A stretch of 64,000 bases of DNA from an uncultured Ignavibacteriales bacterium. Its GTDB lineage: Bacteria; Zixibacteria; MSB-5A5; GN15; FEB-12. The stretch lies in the NCBI GenBank assembly GCA_964503315.1, contig CAZCZL010000005.1, positions 5,335 through 69,334 of the forward strand. The letters run 5' to 3'. The position numbers and the translations under genes were made by a program. Positions 50,801 to 58,363 of this stretch are shown one piece after another. Each line of letters begins with the position of its first letter. Position 1 is the stretch's first letter. The notes beneath the pieces are model-generated. The model made no database searches. It was not told the origin of the DNA and was given only the letters and a program-made list of their open reading frames with translations.

Positions 50801-52129
50801 ATGGCCAGAATATTAGTTGTCGATGACGAACCGAAAATGACGTCGCTGGTCTGCGGCGAACTGGAGGATGCCGGTCATGCCGTCACCACCACGACCAAGC
50901 CATCCGATGCCCTCACCCTGCTGGAACGCCATTCGTTTGATATCGTGATCACCGATCTCTCCATGCCGGAAGTGTCGGGCATGGTGGTTCTCGAGAAGGC
51001 GCTCGAAAAGCCGGGGACCGAGGTGGTGATGATGACCGCCTTCGGGACGGTCGAGACCGCGGTCGCCGCCATGAAAAAAGGGGCGGCGGATTACCTGCTG
51101 AAACCGTTCTCGCTGGATGAACTTACAATTACGGTCGGCAAACTCGTAGAGAAACAGCGTCTCACGTCGCTGGCTACGCACTTCCAGGAGGAAGCCAGAG
51201 TCGAAATGGCCGATACGCTTATCGGCTCCTCCCCCGCGGCAGAGAAAGTCCGAAGGCTGATATCCCAGGTCGCCACGACCGAGACCACTGTTTTGTTGAC
51301 CGGACGTTCCGGGACCGGCAAGGAGCTGGCCGCCCGGATGATCCATGACCTCTCCCCCCGCCGCGCCAAGCCATTTATCGCCGTAAACTGCGCCGCCATT
51401 ACCGAGACCCTGCTTGAGTCCGAACTCTTCGGCCATGAGAAGGGAGCATTTACCGGCGCGGTTGCCCGGAAGCGTGGACGGTTCGAACTGGCCGATGGGG
51501 GGACCATCTTTCTGGATGAAATTGGTGAGATGTCCGCCCAGATGCAGTCCAAGCTTTTGAGGGTGCTCGAAGAGCGCCAGTTGGTGCGGGTCGGCGGGGT
51601 CGACACCGTGGCGGTTGATGTCCGCATAGTGGCCGCGACCAATCGCGTGCTCAAAGACGATATCCGGTCCGGGGCGTTTCGGGAGGATCTGTATTTCCGG
51701 CTGGCGGTCTTCCCTATCCCGATGCCGAGCCTGGCGGAGCGGGGAGATGACGTTGTGGAATTGGCGAGCTATTTCCTGGCGCGGCAGCGCTATCCGCATG
51801 TTCGACTTGATGCTCCCGTGGCAGAGATGCTCCGGTCGTACGACTGGCCCGGCAATATCCGGGAGCTTCGGAATGTCCTGGAGCGTGCCACCATTCTGGC
51901 CGGCGGCGAGCCGCTGACGGTCGATGATTTCGCGCTGGAGACCGAGGATGCTCCCATTGCGGCGGAGGGGATGATTCCGCCGGGGTCGGGACTCGAGGAT
52001 ACGGAAAAAAGCATGATCCTCAGTGCGCTCCAGACCGCCAAGGGAAACAAGACTGAAGCGGCCAAGTTGCTGAAGATAACCCGTCGCCGGCTCTACAGCC
52101 GGATGAAGGCGCACGATATCCCATGGTAG
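50801..52129 (+). CDS. sigma-54-dependent response regulator (NtrC family)
   Basis: Receiver (ILVVDDE..DLSMPE). AAA+ domain (GRSGTGKELAARMIH, GAFTGA, FLDEIGEM, RVVAATN). Fis-type HTH (GNKTEAAKLLKITRRRLYSRMK). Confidence 0.9.
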   Translation: MARILVVDDEPKMTSLVCGELEDAGHAVTTTTKPSDALTLLERHSFDIVITDLSMPEVSGMVVLEKALEKPGTEVVMMTAFGTVETAVAAMKKGAADYLLKPFSLDELTITVGKLVEKQRLTSLATHFQEEARVEMADTLIGSSPAAEKVRRLISQVATTETTVLLTGRSGTGKELAARMIHDLSPRRAKPFIAVNCAAITETLLESELFGHEKGAFTGAVARKRGRFELADGGTIFLDEIGEMSAQMQSKLLRVLEERQLVRVGGVDTVAVDVRIVAATNRVLKDDIRSGAFREDLYFRLAVFPIPMPSLAERGDDVVELASYFLARQRYPHVRLDAPVAEMLRSYDWPGNIRELRNVLERATILAGGEPLTVDDFALETEDAPIAAEGMIPPGSGLEDTEKSMILSALQTAKGNKTEAAKLLKITRRRLYSRMKAHDIPW

Positions 52130-53352: not shown

Positions 53353-54621
53353 TTGTTCAGACGCTATGTCGCGGTAGTCCTGGTTCTGATAACCATAGCC
53401 GGTCGGGTCGATGCTGAGCATCGACCGTTTGCGTTCAAGGCAGGCATCGGCTACGATTACCTCTCTCAACGCTATTTCCTCGATTCATTGGCAGTCTCCG
53501 GCCCGGATACCGTCCTGACCCGCTTTGCTCTGTCCAGCGAATATCTCAATGACCTCAAAGGGAGCATGGAGTTGGCGTACCGCTACGCTGGAACCAATAA
53601 GTTTGACCTTGCGACCCGGCTCGACCAGACGAAAGACATTACCCGCGTGAAGGTTACGTCGAATTGGCAGGCTCTCGCCAGCCTATTCGCCTTGCGCTGG
53701 CGGAACCAAGTCGATTGGCGACATCAGTTTGACGATAGTAGTTCGACTCTGGGCAGCTATGCCACCGCGCTCAGCAATCTGAAAGTCCGACGACCCGTTA
53801 CTGGCTCCACGACGCTCTGGGGGCAGGCCCAGGGCGAGTTGACCGACTTCTATGGTGATATTGGGACAGGGTACGATTTCTACAGGGTCTGGGGGAAACT
53901 GGGATTGGAAAAGGCATTCGGCTATTCCTCCCTACTCTCAATGAACGGCTTTATCATCGATCGCGAGGTATCAGACTCGACCACGCTCAATTACCGGGCG
54001 TATGGCGTCGAGGGGTCGTTTTCCGGCCTGCTCTCGCGGCTTCAGATCGATCTGCTGACCCGCTGGGAGAAGCGGGATTACAACCGCTCCGGCAGCGATG
54101 ATGATTACTCCCGGTTTGAACTGGACTCCCGGAGCAGGGTTGACCTCGGACGCGGCTACTTCTCAGGTCAGTTGCTGGAGCTAGAGACTACTTCCTACGA
54201 CCCTTCTGACCCACTCAATGTCGACTACAGCCGGATCCGCTGGAATGCCACGATCGGACTGACCCTTGGAAGTCTTGAACTGGCGGCAGGGCCGGACTGG
54301 GAGCTTCTCAATCAGGCGGCAGGGTCGGACAGCACGACTGAGGAGTATCGGGAGGCTGCCGGGCTCCTGGAGCTGAATTTGGTGACCACTCGTGGACTGT
54401 TCCTATCGGCCGAAAACCGGCTCGGCAAACGAACTCTCGACCACCCCAGTGAATACCAGTCAGACTTTAGCTTCTATGAGCTGACCCTACTGGGGAATTG
54501 TCTCCTGTGGAAGCATGTCGATGTGAACCTTCTGCTTTCGTCCACCTGGGAATGGCACGACCTGGAGTCCGAGGATAACCGGGCTGTACTGGTATCCGCC
54601 GGCATCTCCTATCGGTTGTAG
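53353..54621 (+). CDS. putative outer-membrane beta-barrel protein
   Basis: TTG start. Signal peptide FRRYVAVVLVLITIAGRVDA. Alternating-hydrophobicity strands rich in Y/R/D/G/S. C-terminal LVSAGISYRL. Confidence 0.65.
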   Translation: MFRRYVAVVLVLITIAGRVDAEHRPFAFKAGIGYDYLSQRYFLDSLAVSGPDTVLTRFALSSEYLNDLKGSMELAYRYAGTNKFDLATRLDQTKDITRVKVTSNWQALASLFALRWRNQVDWRHQFDDSSSTLGSYATALSNLKVRRPVTGSTTLWGQAQGELTDFYGDIGTGYDFYRVWGKLGLEKAFGYSSLLSMNGFIIDREVSDSTTLNYRAYGVEGSFSGLLSRLQIDLLTRWEKRDYNRSGSDDDYSRFELDSRSRVDLGRGYFSGQLLELETTSYDPSDPLNVDYSRIRWNATIGLTLGSLELAAGPDWELLNQAAGSDSTTEEYREAAGLLELNLVTTRGLFLSAENRLGKRTLDHPSEYQSDFSFYELTLLGNCLLWKHVDVNLLLSSTWEWHDLESEDNRAVLVSAGISYRL

Positions 54622-54712
54622 CGCTCCATTCGCTTCCGTATTCTGACGTACTCCGCCAGATTCAAAGGTTGGTTTACCTCATTGCACGAGGCGGTCCTTA
54701 ATTGGGGTTGTT

Positions 54713-54728
54713 TGTGAATTGCATCACA
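54713..54728. promoter_or_regulatory. CRP/FNR-type box, perfect TGTGA-N6-TCACA
   Basis: TGTGAATTGCATCACA. Confidence 0.45.
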
Positions 54729-54769
54729 ATCAGTCAGGGCCGGAGCAGGGTGGGTTCGCCGACGGAGTA

Positions 54770-54785
54770 TGTGAAGTTATTCACT
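54770..54785. promoter_or_regulatory. CRP/FNR-type box, 9/10 (TGTGA-N6-TCACT)
   Basis: TGTGAAGTTATTCACT. Confidence 0.4.
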
Positions 54786-55030
54786 ACCTGATAGCTGGGC
54801 TGGTTCGGGCGGTCGACTTTGATTCTCGCGGCAAGATCAGCCCGAAATCGCCAATCTGGCCAAGATCGGACTCCAATCACGACAACGACTCAGTCTGTGA
54901 GCAAACACAGGTGCTGAGCCTGGTGGGGCAACATCGCCATCGGACGGCGGAGCATCGTCCGGGGGCTCTGATCGGCACGTCCCTCCATCAAACTGTCTCT
55001 ACGTTGGTCGGTTCCGGGAACAATCAACCA

Positions 55031-55046
55031 TGTGAAAACAATCACT
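55031..55046. promoter_or_regulatory. CRP/FNR-type box, 9/10 (TGTGA-N6-TCACT)
   Basis: TGTGAAAACAATCACT. Confidence 0.4.
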
Positions 55047-55109
55047 ACCATGCGTTTCAGAGTCAGACAACGACTCCAAGACAACGGATACGGCCAGGAC
55101 CTCTTACTA

Positions 55110-55125
55110 TGTGAATGTATTCACA
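55110..55125. promoter_or_regulatory. CRP/FNR-type box, perfect TGTGA-N6-TCACA (part of 18-bp palindrome ATGTGAATgtATTCACAT)
   Basis: TGTGAATGTATTCACA. Confidence 0.45.
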
Positions 55126-55375
55126 TGCTTGTACGATTGCCGCGCATGACTGGCTCCTTAGTCGCTTCATTATTCAGCGCAGGCGTGCTCCCAACCAATG
55201 GCGCTGGCGGGTGATGATCCGGTGGCGCGGTGGAGTCTCCCTCGGCGGTGAATTGACCTCGGCTCTCGGCGGTTTGTGCTTCCCTTTGAATATCGGTCGG
55301 ACTCTGTAGATGGTCGGATTTTGATACTACCGGTTGTAGTAACTTCCTTTCTGGTGCCAGATCTCGAATTTTCTC

Positions 55376-55404
55376 TTGACAAAATCAGGTTATGGCCCTA
55401 TGTT
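55376..55404 (+). promoter_or_regulatory. candidate sigma-70 promoter (TTGACA-17-TATGTT)
   Basis: ttgaca at 55376-81 and tatgtt at 55399-404. The leader to ATG55787 would be about 375 nt. Confidence 0.35.
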
Positions 55405-55786
55405 GCGGGCGTCTAGGGAAATAGTTGTGTGAATAACGCTTCTGTTTTGAATCTGCAGCACCTTTGGTAACGTTAAAACAACATTAACGTTAGCGTATCG
55501 AAAGCTCGACCTTCAGGTTTAATCAAACGAGTTTGAAACCTAAGCGGATAAGTCTGTCCGTACGGTTTTTCCAAGACTCAATATTCACTTTGATCAGTAG
55601 TTCAGTGAGTCCGTGTGACGTTGTGCCGTTGGCGCATCACCAGCACATGAGACATCTGGATCTGACGGGTCCGATACCCGATCTCTGATGAGATTCATAT
55701 CGGAAACTTAGGGGTAAGTCATCCTGGGGCATCTCGGGAAGATAACCCAAACTTCGATGACCTTTAGGTTCTTAAAGGAGCATTAA

Positions 55787-58363
55787 ATGATGCAAAAAAG
55801 AAATTTATATTCTTTGTTGCTGATCTCCTTTTTAGTGGTATTCGCCTCGTCTATGGCGTTCGCGAACCAGGTGACGTTCGAGTCCAAAACGCTGCCGCGG
55901 TGCTTCAACTCCGCGTCCAACGTAACGGCGATCGTCTCTGCTGATTCGGTGAGCGCGATAGAGATCGTGGTCGTGGTTGATGGTAACGTTACGTTACCGC
56001 TTCCAGGCAGCATCTTCACCTTCGACGCGGGCTTCACAGCTCTGACCGATCGCGTGGTGGATGATACGTCTGGTGTGGACGGTACCTTGCCCGATACGAT
56101 TCGCATTGCCGCTATGTTGCTCAACCCGAGCGCTGGAGCGTTAGCACAAGGAAATCATGTTGTCGGCCGGATAAACTATAGAACCAATGACGTCTGCTCA
56201 GGTTCTGGTACCCTTCAGGGCGGCGTTTTCGACTATCCGATCCCGGCAACTGTTACCACCCAGTTTGTTGATGCCGCCACCTCTACCATTCTTCCGGTTG
56301 TCGTGAACAATGGTACGGTGACGATCACCAACCTCGCGCCGACTATTGCTGCAATTCCCAACGGTACACTGTACTGGGGCCAGACCTTCTTGGCGACGGC
56401 TGCCGGTTCCGATGCTGATATGGCGAATGGCTGCGAGACCTTGACCTATGCCAAGGTTGCTGGTCCGGCTGCTATGACCGTAAATCCGACCTCTGGCGCC
56501 ATTTCCTGGTTGACCACTGGCGCTGATGTCTGCACCCATAACGTGACCATTTCGGTTACCGACAAGTGCGGATCCTCGGCCCAGACGTCATTCCAGATCT
56601 GCGTCCAGAATAAAGTCCCTGTCATCACCTGCCCGCCGAGCCCGATCATGATCACGTTGGGCGACGTGGCCAATGGCGATGTCAACGCGACTGATGCCGA
56701 TGCTGGTCCGAAGCCGCTTATCTATAGCGTAGTGAGCTTCAACGGCCCGGGCACGGTGACCATGAACCCGTCGACCGGCGTATTCAGCTGGCCGACCGTG
56801 AACGATGACATCGCCTATCTTGGCTCCTTCACGCTCGTCGTGATGGTCACGGATAGCGCCAACGTCTGCAGCCCCTGCAGCCCCTCCAACGCTGACACGT
56901 GCTCCGTCACGATCAACGTTAACTGGGGTAAGGTCGTGATCGAGAAGATCCACAACCAGCTTCAGGGTGAGTTTGCGGAAGTTGACATCGTTCTTGGCAC
57001 CAACTACCCGATCGGCGGTTTCGACCTCCTGATCAAGTATGATAACTCTGCCCTGACCCTCACCGAGGTGCTCCCGGGTGGATTCATCACTGATTGCGGA
57101 TGGGAATACTTCACTTATCGTTTCGGCGCTGATGGCAACTGCAACGGCGGCTGCCCGAGCGGACTCGTCCGTATCGTCTCCATCGCCGAGACCAATAATG
57201 GTAACAACCATCCGGATTGCTTCACCAACTATCCGCCGCCTCCGGGCCTCGATAGCGTCATTGCTACCCTGAAGTTCCTGGTCTCCAACGACCGGACTTT
57301 GGAATGCCAGTACGCCCCGATCGAGTTCTTCTGGATCGACTGCGGTGATAACGGTCTGTCGTCGGTCGACGGTGACTCCCTGCTCATTTCCCGTTATGTT
57401 TACGGGTACGGCGGTGGCGATCCGTACTTCCATATTGAAGCGACTGCCGGTATCGAATTCCCGACCACGTTCGGCGCCCAGGAAGAGTGCGATATCTTCA
57501 CTCCTGGCAAGCCGTCCACGTGGCGCATCGTTGATTTCTTCAACGGTGGCGTTGATATCGTCTGCGCCGACTCGATCGACGCCCGTGGCGACATCAACTT
57601 GAACGAGTTCGCGTATGAAATCGCTGACGCGGTTCTCTTCTCGCGGTACTTCATCTACGGTCTTGGGGTCTTCACGATCAACCAGGCCGGTCAGGTGGCT
57701 GCTACCGACGCGAACGCTGATGGTCTGACGTTGACGGTTGCCGACCTCGTCTACTTGATCCGTGTGGTCGTGGGCGACGAGCTTCCGTATGACAAGGTTG
57801 CGGCCGTGAATGCCAACTACACGTTTGAAAACGGCGTGCTCGCGATCGACGGTGTCGATCTGGGTGCCGCTTTCGTCGTGGTGTCTGGCGATGTCACCCC
57901 GACTTTGACCGCTCAGAACGTTGGCATGCAGTATGCCTTTGACGGCACGAACACTCGCATCCTGGTTTCGCCAGTGATCGACGAGAACGTTACCAACATC
58001 ACCGGATTCTCAGGCACGTTCCTGACCGGCTTGAATGGTAACATCGTGTCCATCGAAATGGCTACTGTCCAGGGTCAGCCGGTTGCCGGAAAGATCATTC
58101 CGAAGCACTTCGGCCTGGCTCAGAACTATCCGAACCCGTTCAACCCGGCTACCACGATTGAGTTCGCTCTGCCGGTCGCCAGCAACTACACCCTGACGAT
58201 TTATAACGTCACCGGTCAGGTTGTCACGACCTTTGAGGGGACTGAAGAAGCTGGTATGCACCAGGTGATCTGGAATGCTAATGAAGTCTCTTCTGGTATC
58301 TACTTCTACAAGTTGAATGCCGGTGCCTTCAGCAGCACGAAGAAGATGGTCCTGCTCAAGTAA
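55787..58363 (+). CDS. scaffoldin-like surface protein: beta-sandwich (cohesin-like?) - 2 cadherin/He_PIG-like Ig - cohesin - dockerin - spacer - T9SS C-terminal sorting domain
   Basis: AAGGAG SD. Signal peptide MMQKRNLYSLLLISFLVVFASSMAFA. Cohesin pattern VVIEKIHNQLQGEFAEVDIVLGTNYPIGGFDLLIKYDNSALTLTEVLPGGF. Dockerin DARGDINLNEFAYEIADAVLFSRYF..DANADGLTLTVADLVYLIRVVVG. CTD QNYPNPFNPATTIEF...SGIYFYKLNAGAFSSTKKMVLLK. Confidence 0.85.
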   Translation: MMQKRNLYSLLLISFLVVFASSMAFANQVTFESKTLPRCFNSASNVTAIVSADSVSAIEIVVVVDGNVTLPLPGSIFTFDAGFTALTDRVVDDTSGVDGTLPDTIRIAAMLLNPSAGALAQGNHVVGRINYRTNDVCSGSGTLQGGVFDYPIPATVTTQFVDAATSTILPVVVNNGTVTITNLAPTIAAIPNGTLYWGQTFLATAAGSDADMANGCETLTYAKVAGPAAMTVNPTSGAISWLTTGADVCTHNVTISVTDKCGSSAQTSFQICVQNKVPVITCPPSPIMITLGDVANGDVNATDADAGPKPLIYSVVSFNGPGTVTMNPSTGVFSWPTVNDDIAYLGSFTLVVMVTDSANVCSPCSPSNADTCSVTINVNWGKVVIEKIHNQLQGEFAEVDIVLGTNYPIGGFDLLIKYDNSALTLTEVLPGGFITDCGWEYFTYRFGADGNCNGGCPSGLVRIVSIAETNNGNNHPDCFTNYPPPPGLDSVIATLKFLVSNDRTLECQYAPIEFFWIDCGDNGLSSVDGDSLLISRYVYGYGGGDPYFHIEATAGIEFPTTFGAQEECDIFTPGKPSTWRIVDFFNGGVDIVCADSIDARGDINLNEFAYEIADAVLFSRYFIYGLGVFTINQAGQVAATDANADGLTLTVADLVYLIRVVVGDELPYDKVAAVNANYTFENGVLAIDGVDLGAAFVVVSGDVTPTLTAQNVGMQYAFDGTNTRILVSPVIDENVTNITGFSGTFLTGLNGNIVSIEMATVQGQPVAGKIIPKHFGLAQNYPNPFNPATTIEFALPVASNYTLTIYNVTGQVVTTFEGTEEAGMHQVIWNANEVSSGIYFYKLNAGAFSSTKKMVLLK
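56927..57409 (+). other. cohesin-like module
   Basis: G-x-F-x-V-D-I-V-L....PIGGFDLLIKYDNSALTLTEVLPG matches the cohesin core (G..v.vpv......i...df...YD...L....v.pG). It contains a Cys-rich insertion (CNGGCPSG..HPDC). Confidence 0.6.
57578..57778 (+). other. dockerin module
   Basis: DARGDINLNEFAYEIAD + helix AVLFSRYFI, then DANADGLTLTVAD + helix LVYLIRVVV. Confidence 0.6.
58115..58360 (+). other. T9SS C-terminal sorting domain
   Basis: LAQNYPNPFNPATTIEFALPVASNYTLTIYNVTGQVVTTFEG...SGIYFYKLNAGAFSSTKKMVLLK. Same family as 13719-13976. Confidence 0.8.

Follow-up and report, generated by a model that had tools for sequence, protein, structure and literature searches.

In many anaerobes and Gram-positive bacteria, the NADH/NAD+ balance is sensed mainly by Rex, which is usually seen as a repressor that blocks a promoter from one site; most of the work on it has been done in Gram-positive bacteria. 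Several operators per repressor, spread over hundreds of base pairs, are known from other systems (lac O1-O2-O3, gal OE-OI, ara O2-I1, and deo). There, operator spacing is matched to the helical turn, for which in vivo measurements gave an apparent ~11 bp; one of the operators lies over or next to the promoter, and the DNA is looped by a repressor that is tetrameric or of higher order. Clustered high-affinity sites that are devoid of promoters and variable in copy number are found in titration arrays, such as the DnaA-titrating datA locus and tandem decoy operators. The Rex operators (ROP) of Streptomyces coelicolor, Staphylococcus aureus, Bacillus subtilis, Thermus, and Thermotoga share one 18–20-bp palindrome, TTGTGAA-N4-TTCACAA (PMC2883068, PMC6391272), with the general consensus TTGTGAANNNNTTCACAA (PMC6391272). 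Known Rex targets carry one such operator, or two in the case of S. aureus ldh1, within the promoter or a few base pairs from it (PMC2883068). Here, we describe four palindromes of this kind in a window of 64,000 nucleotides (C5:5335–69334) from the genome of an uncultured member of the Zixibacteria (G000; 3.52 Mb, 50 contigs), which lie in non-coding DNA upstream of a promoter, P1, its leader, and a gene for a scaffoldin-like surface protein. The palindrome, the predicted kind of regulator (winged-helix plus Rossmann domain, NADH-released), and the themes of the regulon (respiration, TCA cycle/fermentation, cytochrome bd, rex autoregulation) are those of known Rex systems. What differs is the arrangement. 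Four boxes, and up to seven in relatives, are situated 250–1,100 bp upstream of the promoter, without a promoter of their own, at multiples of ~11.2 bp, and in numbers that vary by tandem duplication, in a zixibacterial host. Operator, regulator, and regulon are of known kinds, but the architecture of the array is not described in the Rex literature searched and is unusual in its many boxes, the lack of adjacent promoters, the helical phasing, the minimum distance of ~250 bp, the means by which copy number changes, and the phylum in which it occurs.

The four palindromes form a genuine cluster, not attributable to chance, of binding sites for a dimeric regulator, and the DNA that holds them is non-coding. 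Box 1 (54711–54730, core 54713–54728; TTTGTGAATTGCATCACAAT, core TGTGAATTGCATCACA) and box 4, the proximal one (55108–55127, core 55110–55125; TATGTGAATGTATTCACATG, core TGTGAATGTATTCACA), match TGTGA-N6-TCACA exactly, whereas box 2 (54768–54787, core 54770–54785; TATGTGAAGTTATTCACTAC, core TGTGAAGTTATTCACT) and box 3 (55029–55048, core 55031–55046; CATGTGAAAACAATCACTAC, core TGTGAAAACAATCACT) match it at nine of 10 positions; no strand is assigned to any of them. Their centres are 57, 261, and 79 bp apart, that of box 1 being located at approximately −690 and that of box 4 at approximately −293 relative to the start of P1. Coordinates, sequences, and spacings agree with those in a sequence-only reading of this DNA that had preceded our re-scan. 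When scored with a weight matrix trained on 20 other G000 sites, the four window boxes being left out, boxes 1 to 4 reached 22.7, 21.7, 18.0, and 23.4 bits and ranked 9th, 17th, 29th, and 7th among the ~30 G000 sites at or above the threshold for a strong site (≥18 bits).

The window contains seven matches to TGTGA-N6-TCACA with at most one mismatch, compared with 1.57 ± 1.21 expected, and none of 100 shuffles reached seven. The three matches outside the cluster are all within open reading frames (ORFs). In the whole genome, 14 exact sites were found against ~2.6 estimated from composition. With 0.003 sites expected per 413 bp, the length over which the four boxes extend, the probability of at least four, corrected over all windows, is ~3e-8. 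The cluster is the only one of its kind in G000, where the genome scan found no further 1-kb window with even three sites. Neither the 131-aa ORF at 54719–55114 nor any other frame is conserved, and a hidden gene in the spacer was rejected because no frame stands out in comparison with nine orthologous spacers, which differ by indels of 1, 2, and 4 nt. An Rfam search of 54000–56500 returned no family at E ≤ 1, and TRF together with a repeat search of the window revealed no repeat (and no tandem duplication) beyond the boxes themselves.

TGTGA-N6-TCACA is also the core of the E. coli CRP site, and the cluster had at first been attributed to the CRP/FNR family. Of this interpretation, the real cluster of regulator sites in non-coding DNA upstream of a scaffoldin-like gene stands; the family does not, since the motif matches the Rex operator and follows Rex across genomes. 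E. coli CRP sites and Crp/Fnr boxes have the same 5-6-5 palindromic core, but the sites described here differ from those of CRP in the extended half-sites TTGTGAA/TTCACAA, in the lack of a −41.5/−61.5 position, in the lack of a co-occurring CRP-type protein, and in a regulon of redox and energy metabolism. A scan of the window found no promoter-like element that would place the boxes near −41.5, −61.5, or similar. In S. aureus, the Rex operator TTGTGAAW4TTCACAA was first noticed as TGTGAn6TCACA, like Crp-type sites, and the two kinds of motif resemble each other (PMC2883068). The consensus of the 20 other G000 sites is TTTGTGAA-N4-TTCACAAA, and in this extended form it matches the published Rex operator TTGTGAA-N4-TTCACAA (PMC2883068, PMC6391272).

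A rex gene (G000:C5:71393–72061, 222 aa) is located ~2 kb past the window end and could, because it lies beyond the 64 kb, not be seen in the sequence-only reading. Its product has the domains Put_DNA-bind_N (PF06971) and CoA_binding (PF02629), passed the cut-offs of NF003995 (260 bits; cut-off 126), NF003993 (249.9; 217), and NF003992 (241.1; 226) in NCBIfam, and matched solved Rex structures in the PDB over its full length, the GxGxxG stretch included (E 1e-45 to 1e-35). An exact box (C5:71339) sits 46 bp upstream of the ORF. The rex promoter, TTGACA-17-TATACT (region G000:C5:71289–72061), has two predicted boxes, the first (71289), of 17.1 bits, covering the −35 element and the second (71339), of 24.1 bits, situated at the start site, which is a textbook arrangement for autoregulation. 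Among 80 rex loci from named Candidatus Zixiibacteriota/GN15 genomes, TGTGA-N6-TCAC(A) was present within ~100 bp upstream of rex in 77, and as a perfect palindrome in 76. Rex was found in 38 of the 41 relatives surveyed by a PF06971 search, in which the control E. coli genome also gave a match; we know of no Rex regulon in E. coli K-12. The three genomes without Rex are 70%, 76%, and 91% complete. The motif was enriched over its reversed control in every one of the 41. Since the extended motif, the box at rex, the co-occurrence across genomes, and the redox regulon all agree, the four palindromes are very probably Rex operators.

It is extremely unlikely that the boxes are bound by the single Crp/Fnr-type protein of G000 (C8:85648–86316) instead. 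This protein has cNMP-binding and HTH_Crp_2 domains, and the boxes do contain the CRP-type core, though this core is common to Rex. A search for a Crp/Fnr-family gene, as the sequence-only reading had proposed, was therefore positive, but the motif does not follow the protein across genomes: no homologue is detectable in G010, G021, G024, G025, and G028, which all keep the motif (G010 with a three-box array), whereas G012 and G020 have the protein yet no boxes at this locus. It also scores far below every NCBIfam cut-off for CRP, FNR, and FtrB, and its recognition helix, PETLSRSF (TIPETLSRSFARL), lacks the Arg-Glu...Arg that suits TGTGA in CRP. The E--SR pattern of this helix, in which the Arg-Glu pair of CRP is missing, we take to be FNR-like; the FNR core is TTGAT-N4-ATCAA. 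Finally, both the redox/energy regulon and the box ahead of rex speak for Rex and not for Crp/Fnr.

This predicted regulon, which is typical of Rex in its emphasis on energy and redox metabolism, comprises, by the position of the other strong boxes in G000, cydA (cytochrome bd oxidase), gltA (citrate synthase), fumC (fumarase), and genes for an aldehyde dehydrogenase, a 3-hydroxyacyl-CoA dehydrogenase, and a 2-oxoacid:ferredoxin oxidoreductase, as well as gdh, glnA, and genes for rubrerythrin and multihaem cytochromes. At ordinary targets (rex, gltA, fumC, aldehyde dehydrogenase, gdh, and glnA among them), the box coincides with a strong sigma-70 promoter (often TTGACA-16/18-TAnnnT) or follows it closely, as is the case in S. 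aureus (PMC2883068). Two exact palindromes, C1:375828 and C1:377276, flank the glutamine synthetase gene. The first belongs to its promoter and is a Rex box; the second, whose spacer is rich in G+C, lies at the 3′ end of the gene, between convergent genes. A miniature inverted-repeat transposable element or insertion sequence with TGTGA terminal repeats was rejected at this place because the enclosed ORF is glutamine synthetase and the first site its promoter box. Rex co-regulation of the presumed dockerin-bearing partners of the scaffold was likewise rejected as a general rule, since just one of 31 dockerin genes (C25:7204) has even a 12.3-bit box. The ~31 dockerin-bearing ORFs of G000 include a multihaem cytochrome c with a dockerin domain (G000:C25:7127–8616), which has this moderate Rex-like box of 12.3 bits 70 bp upstream and could be a redox protein able to dock onto a cohesin scaffold.

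The array is kept while the DNA around it changes. Between G000 and G004, the spacer that separates the 422-aa gene upstream from the 858-aa scaffold gene is 82% identical; the half-sites of the boxes are the same in both while the spacers within the boxes and the flanks have changed, and box 1 is identical. In G002 and G003, the distal spacer can no longer be aligned by BLAST, and the four boxes are kept in the same geometry. Throughout these four species, the centres are separated by 57, 261–263, and 77–79 bp (57 bp being identical in all four), and the last box is 246–257 bp from the −35 element of P1. Box 3, the weakest, is kept in G004, G002, G003, G022, G005, and G007, and G022, which belongs to another genus, also has four boxes. 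Beyond these, boxes were mapped in the 65 loci that hold the conserved leader, 41 of which have between one and seven; arrays thus occur at this one locus in more than 15 genera, which rules out the suggestion that the palindromes are a remnant. Many relatives possess Rex and its regulon without the array. The number of boxes varies by tandem duplication; in G042, a 77-bp unit is present in 6.2 copies of 79% identity and carries seven boxes of 24–28 bits; the core of box 4 is identical to that of one of these units. Seven boxes are also found in G111 (at 54, 54, 55, 64, 110, and 78 bp) and three in G119a (at 113 and 113 bp). In these two genomes, no sequence repeat is detectable between the boxes, and only the boxes and their spacing are kept.

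The spacings themselves are periodic. For 56 box-to-box values from 27 de-duplicated architectures, a period of 11.1–11.3 bp with a phase near zero was obtained (R 0.65–0.67), and none of 2,000 random sets, for which the period was also scanned, matched it. A turn of ~11.2 bp, similar to in vivo values of the helical repeat from looping assays, places all boxes on the same side of the DNA, whereas with 10.5 bp per turn neighbours would come to lie on roughly opposite sides. The distance to the leader is constrained as well, the proximal box being 249–380 bp (median 304) upstream of the leader start in 41 loci and never closer, although no cross-genus conservation of the sequence between the proximal box and P1 was found in the aligned loci. 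P1 itself, TTGACA-17-TATGTT (55376–55404, plus strand), is the sole sigma-70-like match in 54400–55900, in agreement with the sequence-only reading, and its CTTGACAAA −35 element and TAnnnT −10 element are conserved family-wide. The same reading had considered the sites too far from the promoter for ordinary action, which holds for boxes 293–690 bp upstream of P1.

Since the association is exclusive, the distance constrained, and both extend over more than 15 genera, the array likely serves the P1-leader-scaffoldin unit. What the sequences show is the identity of the motif and of the regulator gene, their conservation and geometry, and the lack of promoters at the boxes. That Rex binds, that it does so cooperatively, in which direction it acts, and on which target are inferred from these, and the evidence leans slightly towards the array conferring Rex- and NADH-dependent control on this downstream unit. 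Whether a helically phased Rex array, acting as distal control module of the unit, would be the whole explanation we regard as evenly poised. At a low NADH/NAD+ ratio, Rex dimers would occupy the boxes, and the multiples of ~11.2 bp would keep them in rotational register and allow cooperative occupation. The resulting nucleoprotein block 250–700 bp upstream of P1 would keep the scaffoldin unit repressed, because polymerases coming from upstream are halted or because the long region ahead of P1 is disturbed. When NADH rises, as under limitation of electron acceptors, Rex would leave and the block be lifted. That the array works specifically by blocking incoming or far-upstream-dependent transcription is a tentative proposal.

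A number of points weigh against the array as a distal control module. At 250–700 bp from P1, none of the four window boxes overlaps or adjoins the promoter it would regulate, as the boxes of the other targets do. Multiple phased operators are shared with lac, gal, ara, and deo, but there is no box near P1 here, not even a weak one (none ≥7 bits), and the proximal box and P1 are not in helical phase with each other (R ~0.3), evidence against a specific loop between the array and P1. Both findings led us to reject a loop that would end at a weak box close to this promoter. We know of no oligomerisation of Rex beyond the dimer. Nor do the boxes have promoters of their own. When the 47 array boxes first mapped (16 genomes) were scored for an adjacent sigma-70-like promoter on both strands, the mean best score was 7.2 of 12 and none reached 10, compared with a mean of 7.15 and 3.5% reaching 10 for random intergenic DNA and seven of 26 reaching 10 for the other strong G000 boxes. 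Statistically, this rules out that each box gates its own sigma-70 promoter, and the usual occlusion of a promoter by Rex therefore does not apply to the array. The source of polymerases to be blocked is a further difficulty: in G059, the array is preceded by a prolyl oligopeptidase gene that is divergent, and the upstream genes differ at other loci, so read-through from the upstream gene is not a general one. Transcripts derived from upstream would also be stopped by the terminator-like hairpin of the leader itself. Finally, the Rex described so far is dimeric and works at promoters (PMC2883068), and neither higher-order or long-range action of Rex nor Rex arrays or roadblocks were found in the literature searched.

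In an alternative reading, the array would gate an unrecognised promoter, P2, perhaps of non-consensus type or served by an alternative sigma factor, located in the boxes or just past them. Rex would then act by ordinary occlusion, and the transcript would cross the ~250-bp segment and continue into P1, leader, and scaffoldin gene, or else be a separate small RNA. Elsewhere in G000, Rex boxes do sit on promoters, the length of the segment past the proximal box is conserved (249–380 bp), and a TCATTAT block ~44 bp past box 4 is kept in G000, G004, and G002. This block is, however, absent outside these three close species, the segment is without cross-genus conservation, conserved ORF, or Rfam match, and the promoter scores of the 47 array boxes (0/47 at ≥10/12) are no better than random. 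We consider P2 unlikely. That the array is a decoy or sink, which titrates Rex and thereby sharpens or delays the response of the regulon, the scaffoldin neighbourhood being historical, is quite unlikely. Four of the ~30 strong G000 sites are indeed assembled here, and up to seven very strong ones (24–28 bits) in G042; the boxes lack promoters and are kept away from P1, their copy number varies by tandem duplication, and the phasing fits cooperative filling. The place of a sink would be arbitrary, though, and in more than 15 genera the array is confined to this locus, with a constrained distance to P1; unlike titration arrays, whose promoter-less clusters and variable copy number it shares, it is fixed beside one gene. 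There is also no second array in G000, and many relatives with Rex and regulon do without one.

A mere insulator against read-through, in which bound Rex would keep polymerases that have left the upstream beta-barrel gene from reaching P1, has in its favour that most arrays begin 38–120 bp past the stop codon of a co-oriented gene without a conserved terminator, and that a single G000 box is well downstream of its promoter (~+85, at the cytochrome gene on C24). Against it speak the array of G059, which follows the divergent prolyl oligopeptidase gene, and the loci of G111, G057, G119b, and G103, in which the upstream frames are other ones or on the opposite strand, and it leaves the constant distance to P1 unexplained. 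As the only function of the array, such a roadblock is very unlikely, and as a general mechanism it was discarded, weakened as it is by G059 and the other upstream contexts.

The genes and elements around the array complete the picture. Upstream, a gene for a 422-aa protein without family match (53353–54621, plus strand) ends 92 bp before box 1; no intrinsic terminator was found after it, and it is syntenic in most, not all, array-bearing genomes. Downstream of the proximal box, a variable, G-rich, box-free segment (55128–55324) reaches to the upstream element of P1. Its length is kept and its sequence is not; it contains no conserved ORF, and G000 and G004 differ in it by indels of 1, 2, and 4 nt. 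The upstream element is a palindrome, TACTAC-N5-GTAGTA (55325–55341), with its centre at approximately −78 from the P1 start and an A/T tract before it (55316–55341 together). Nearly all aligned loci of the family keep it, whether or not they have Rex boxes, and a different regulator of P1 probably binds there.

P1 is followed by a leader RNA (55411–55571, plus strand) with three predicted hairpins, the last of which is terminator-like (55544–55561 plus a T run). From the leader on towards the ATG at 55787, G000 and G004 are 100% identical over ~430 bp, compared with ~82% in the flanks. The leader core (55410–55476) was surveyed in 108 family genomes of 47 genera and is conserved in 71 of the genomes and 37 of the genera; the third hairpin shows compensatory changes and is followed by GGUUUU(U). 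The leader is a candidate for a new cis-regulatory RNA or small RNA ahead of a gene for a scaffold of the type IX secretion system (T9SS). This gene (55787–58363, plus strand; 858 aa), which codes for a predicted T9SS-sorted surface protein with He_PIG/cadherin-like Ig domains and a Por_Secre_tail, is the one preceded by the module in every genome, and its start region does not vary within the family. In G090, G091, G119, G011, and G117, the P1-leader core is present two or three times, often at contig ends (multi-copy loci L157, L184, L185, L173, and L177; also G011, G117, and G014), and some contigs stop right at the box array (G055 and G010); the cassette tends to break assemblies. In the distal leader, TTGGCGCATCACCAGCA (55637–55652) has GG/GC in the −24/−12 register of sigma-54 promoters; by eye, it is conserved only in the four closest species. 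A gene for a sigma-54 activator is found at 50801–52129.

What the array might represent beyond this locus is a homotypic redox "rheostat", in which up to seven Rex dimers on one face of the DNA, at multiples of ~11.2 bp, would assemble cooperatively and all-or-none on an array that has no promoter and keeps at least 250 bp away from the one it serves. It would influence a strong promoter from afar or, as a sink for Rex, set the NADH threshold of the regulon, and repeat units gained or lost in evolution would adjust how strong it is. Taken as one proposal, this is possible but doubtful. To our knowledge, enhancer-like, silencer-like, or decoy logic has not been described for Rex or other one-component metabolic repressors. 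For the annotation of genomes, the locus teaches that TGTGA-N6-TCACA need not mean CRP, and the phylum gains a predicted Rex regulon and a weight matrix to search for it. Many genera of an uncultured phylum, for which flexible anaerobic respiration has been deduced from metagenomes, have retained the architecture of the array and reshaped it. Should Rex act from the array, it would be a case of natural long-range or cooperative array control in bacteria, or else a natural decoy array; if the control of the scaffoldin unit proposed here is true, the redox state of the cell would be linked to the display of T9SS surface scaffolds in Zixibacteria.

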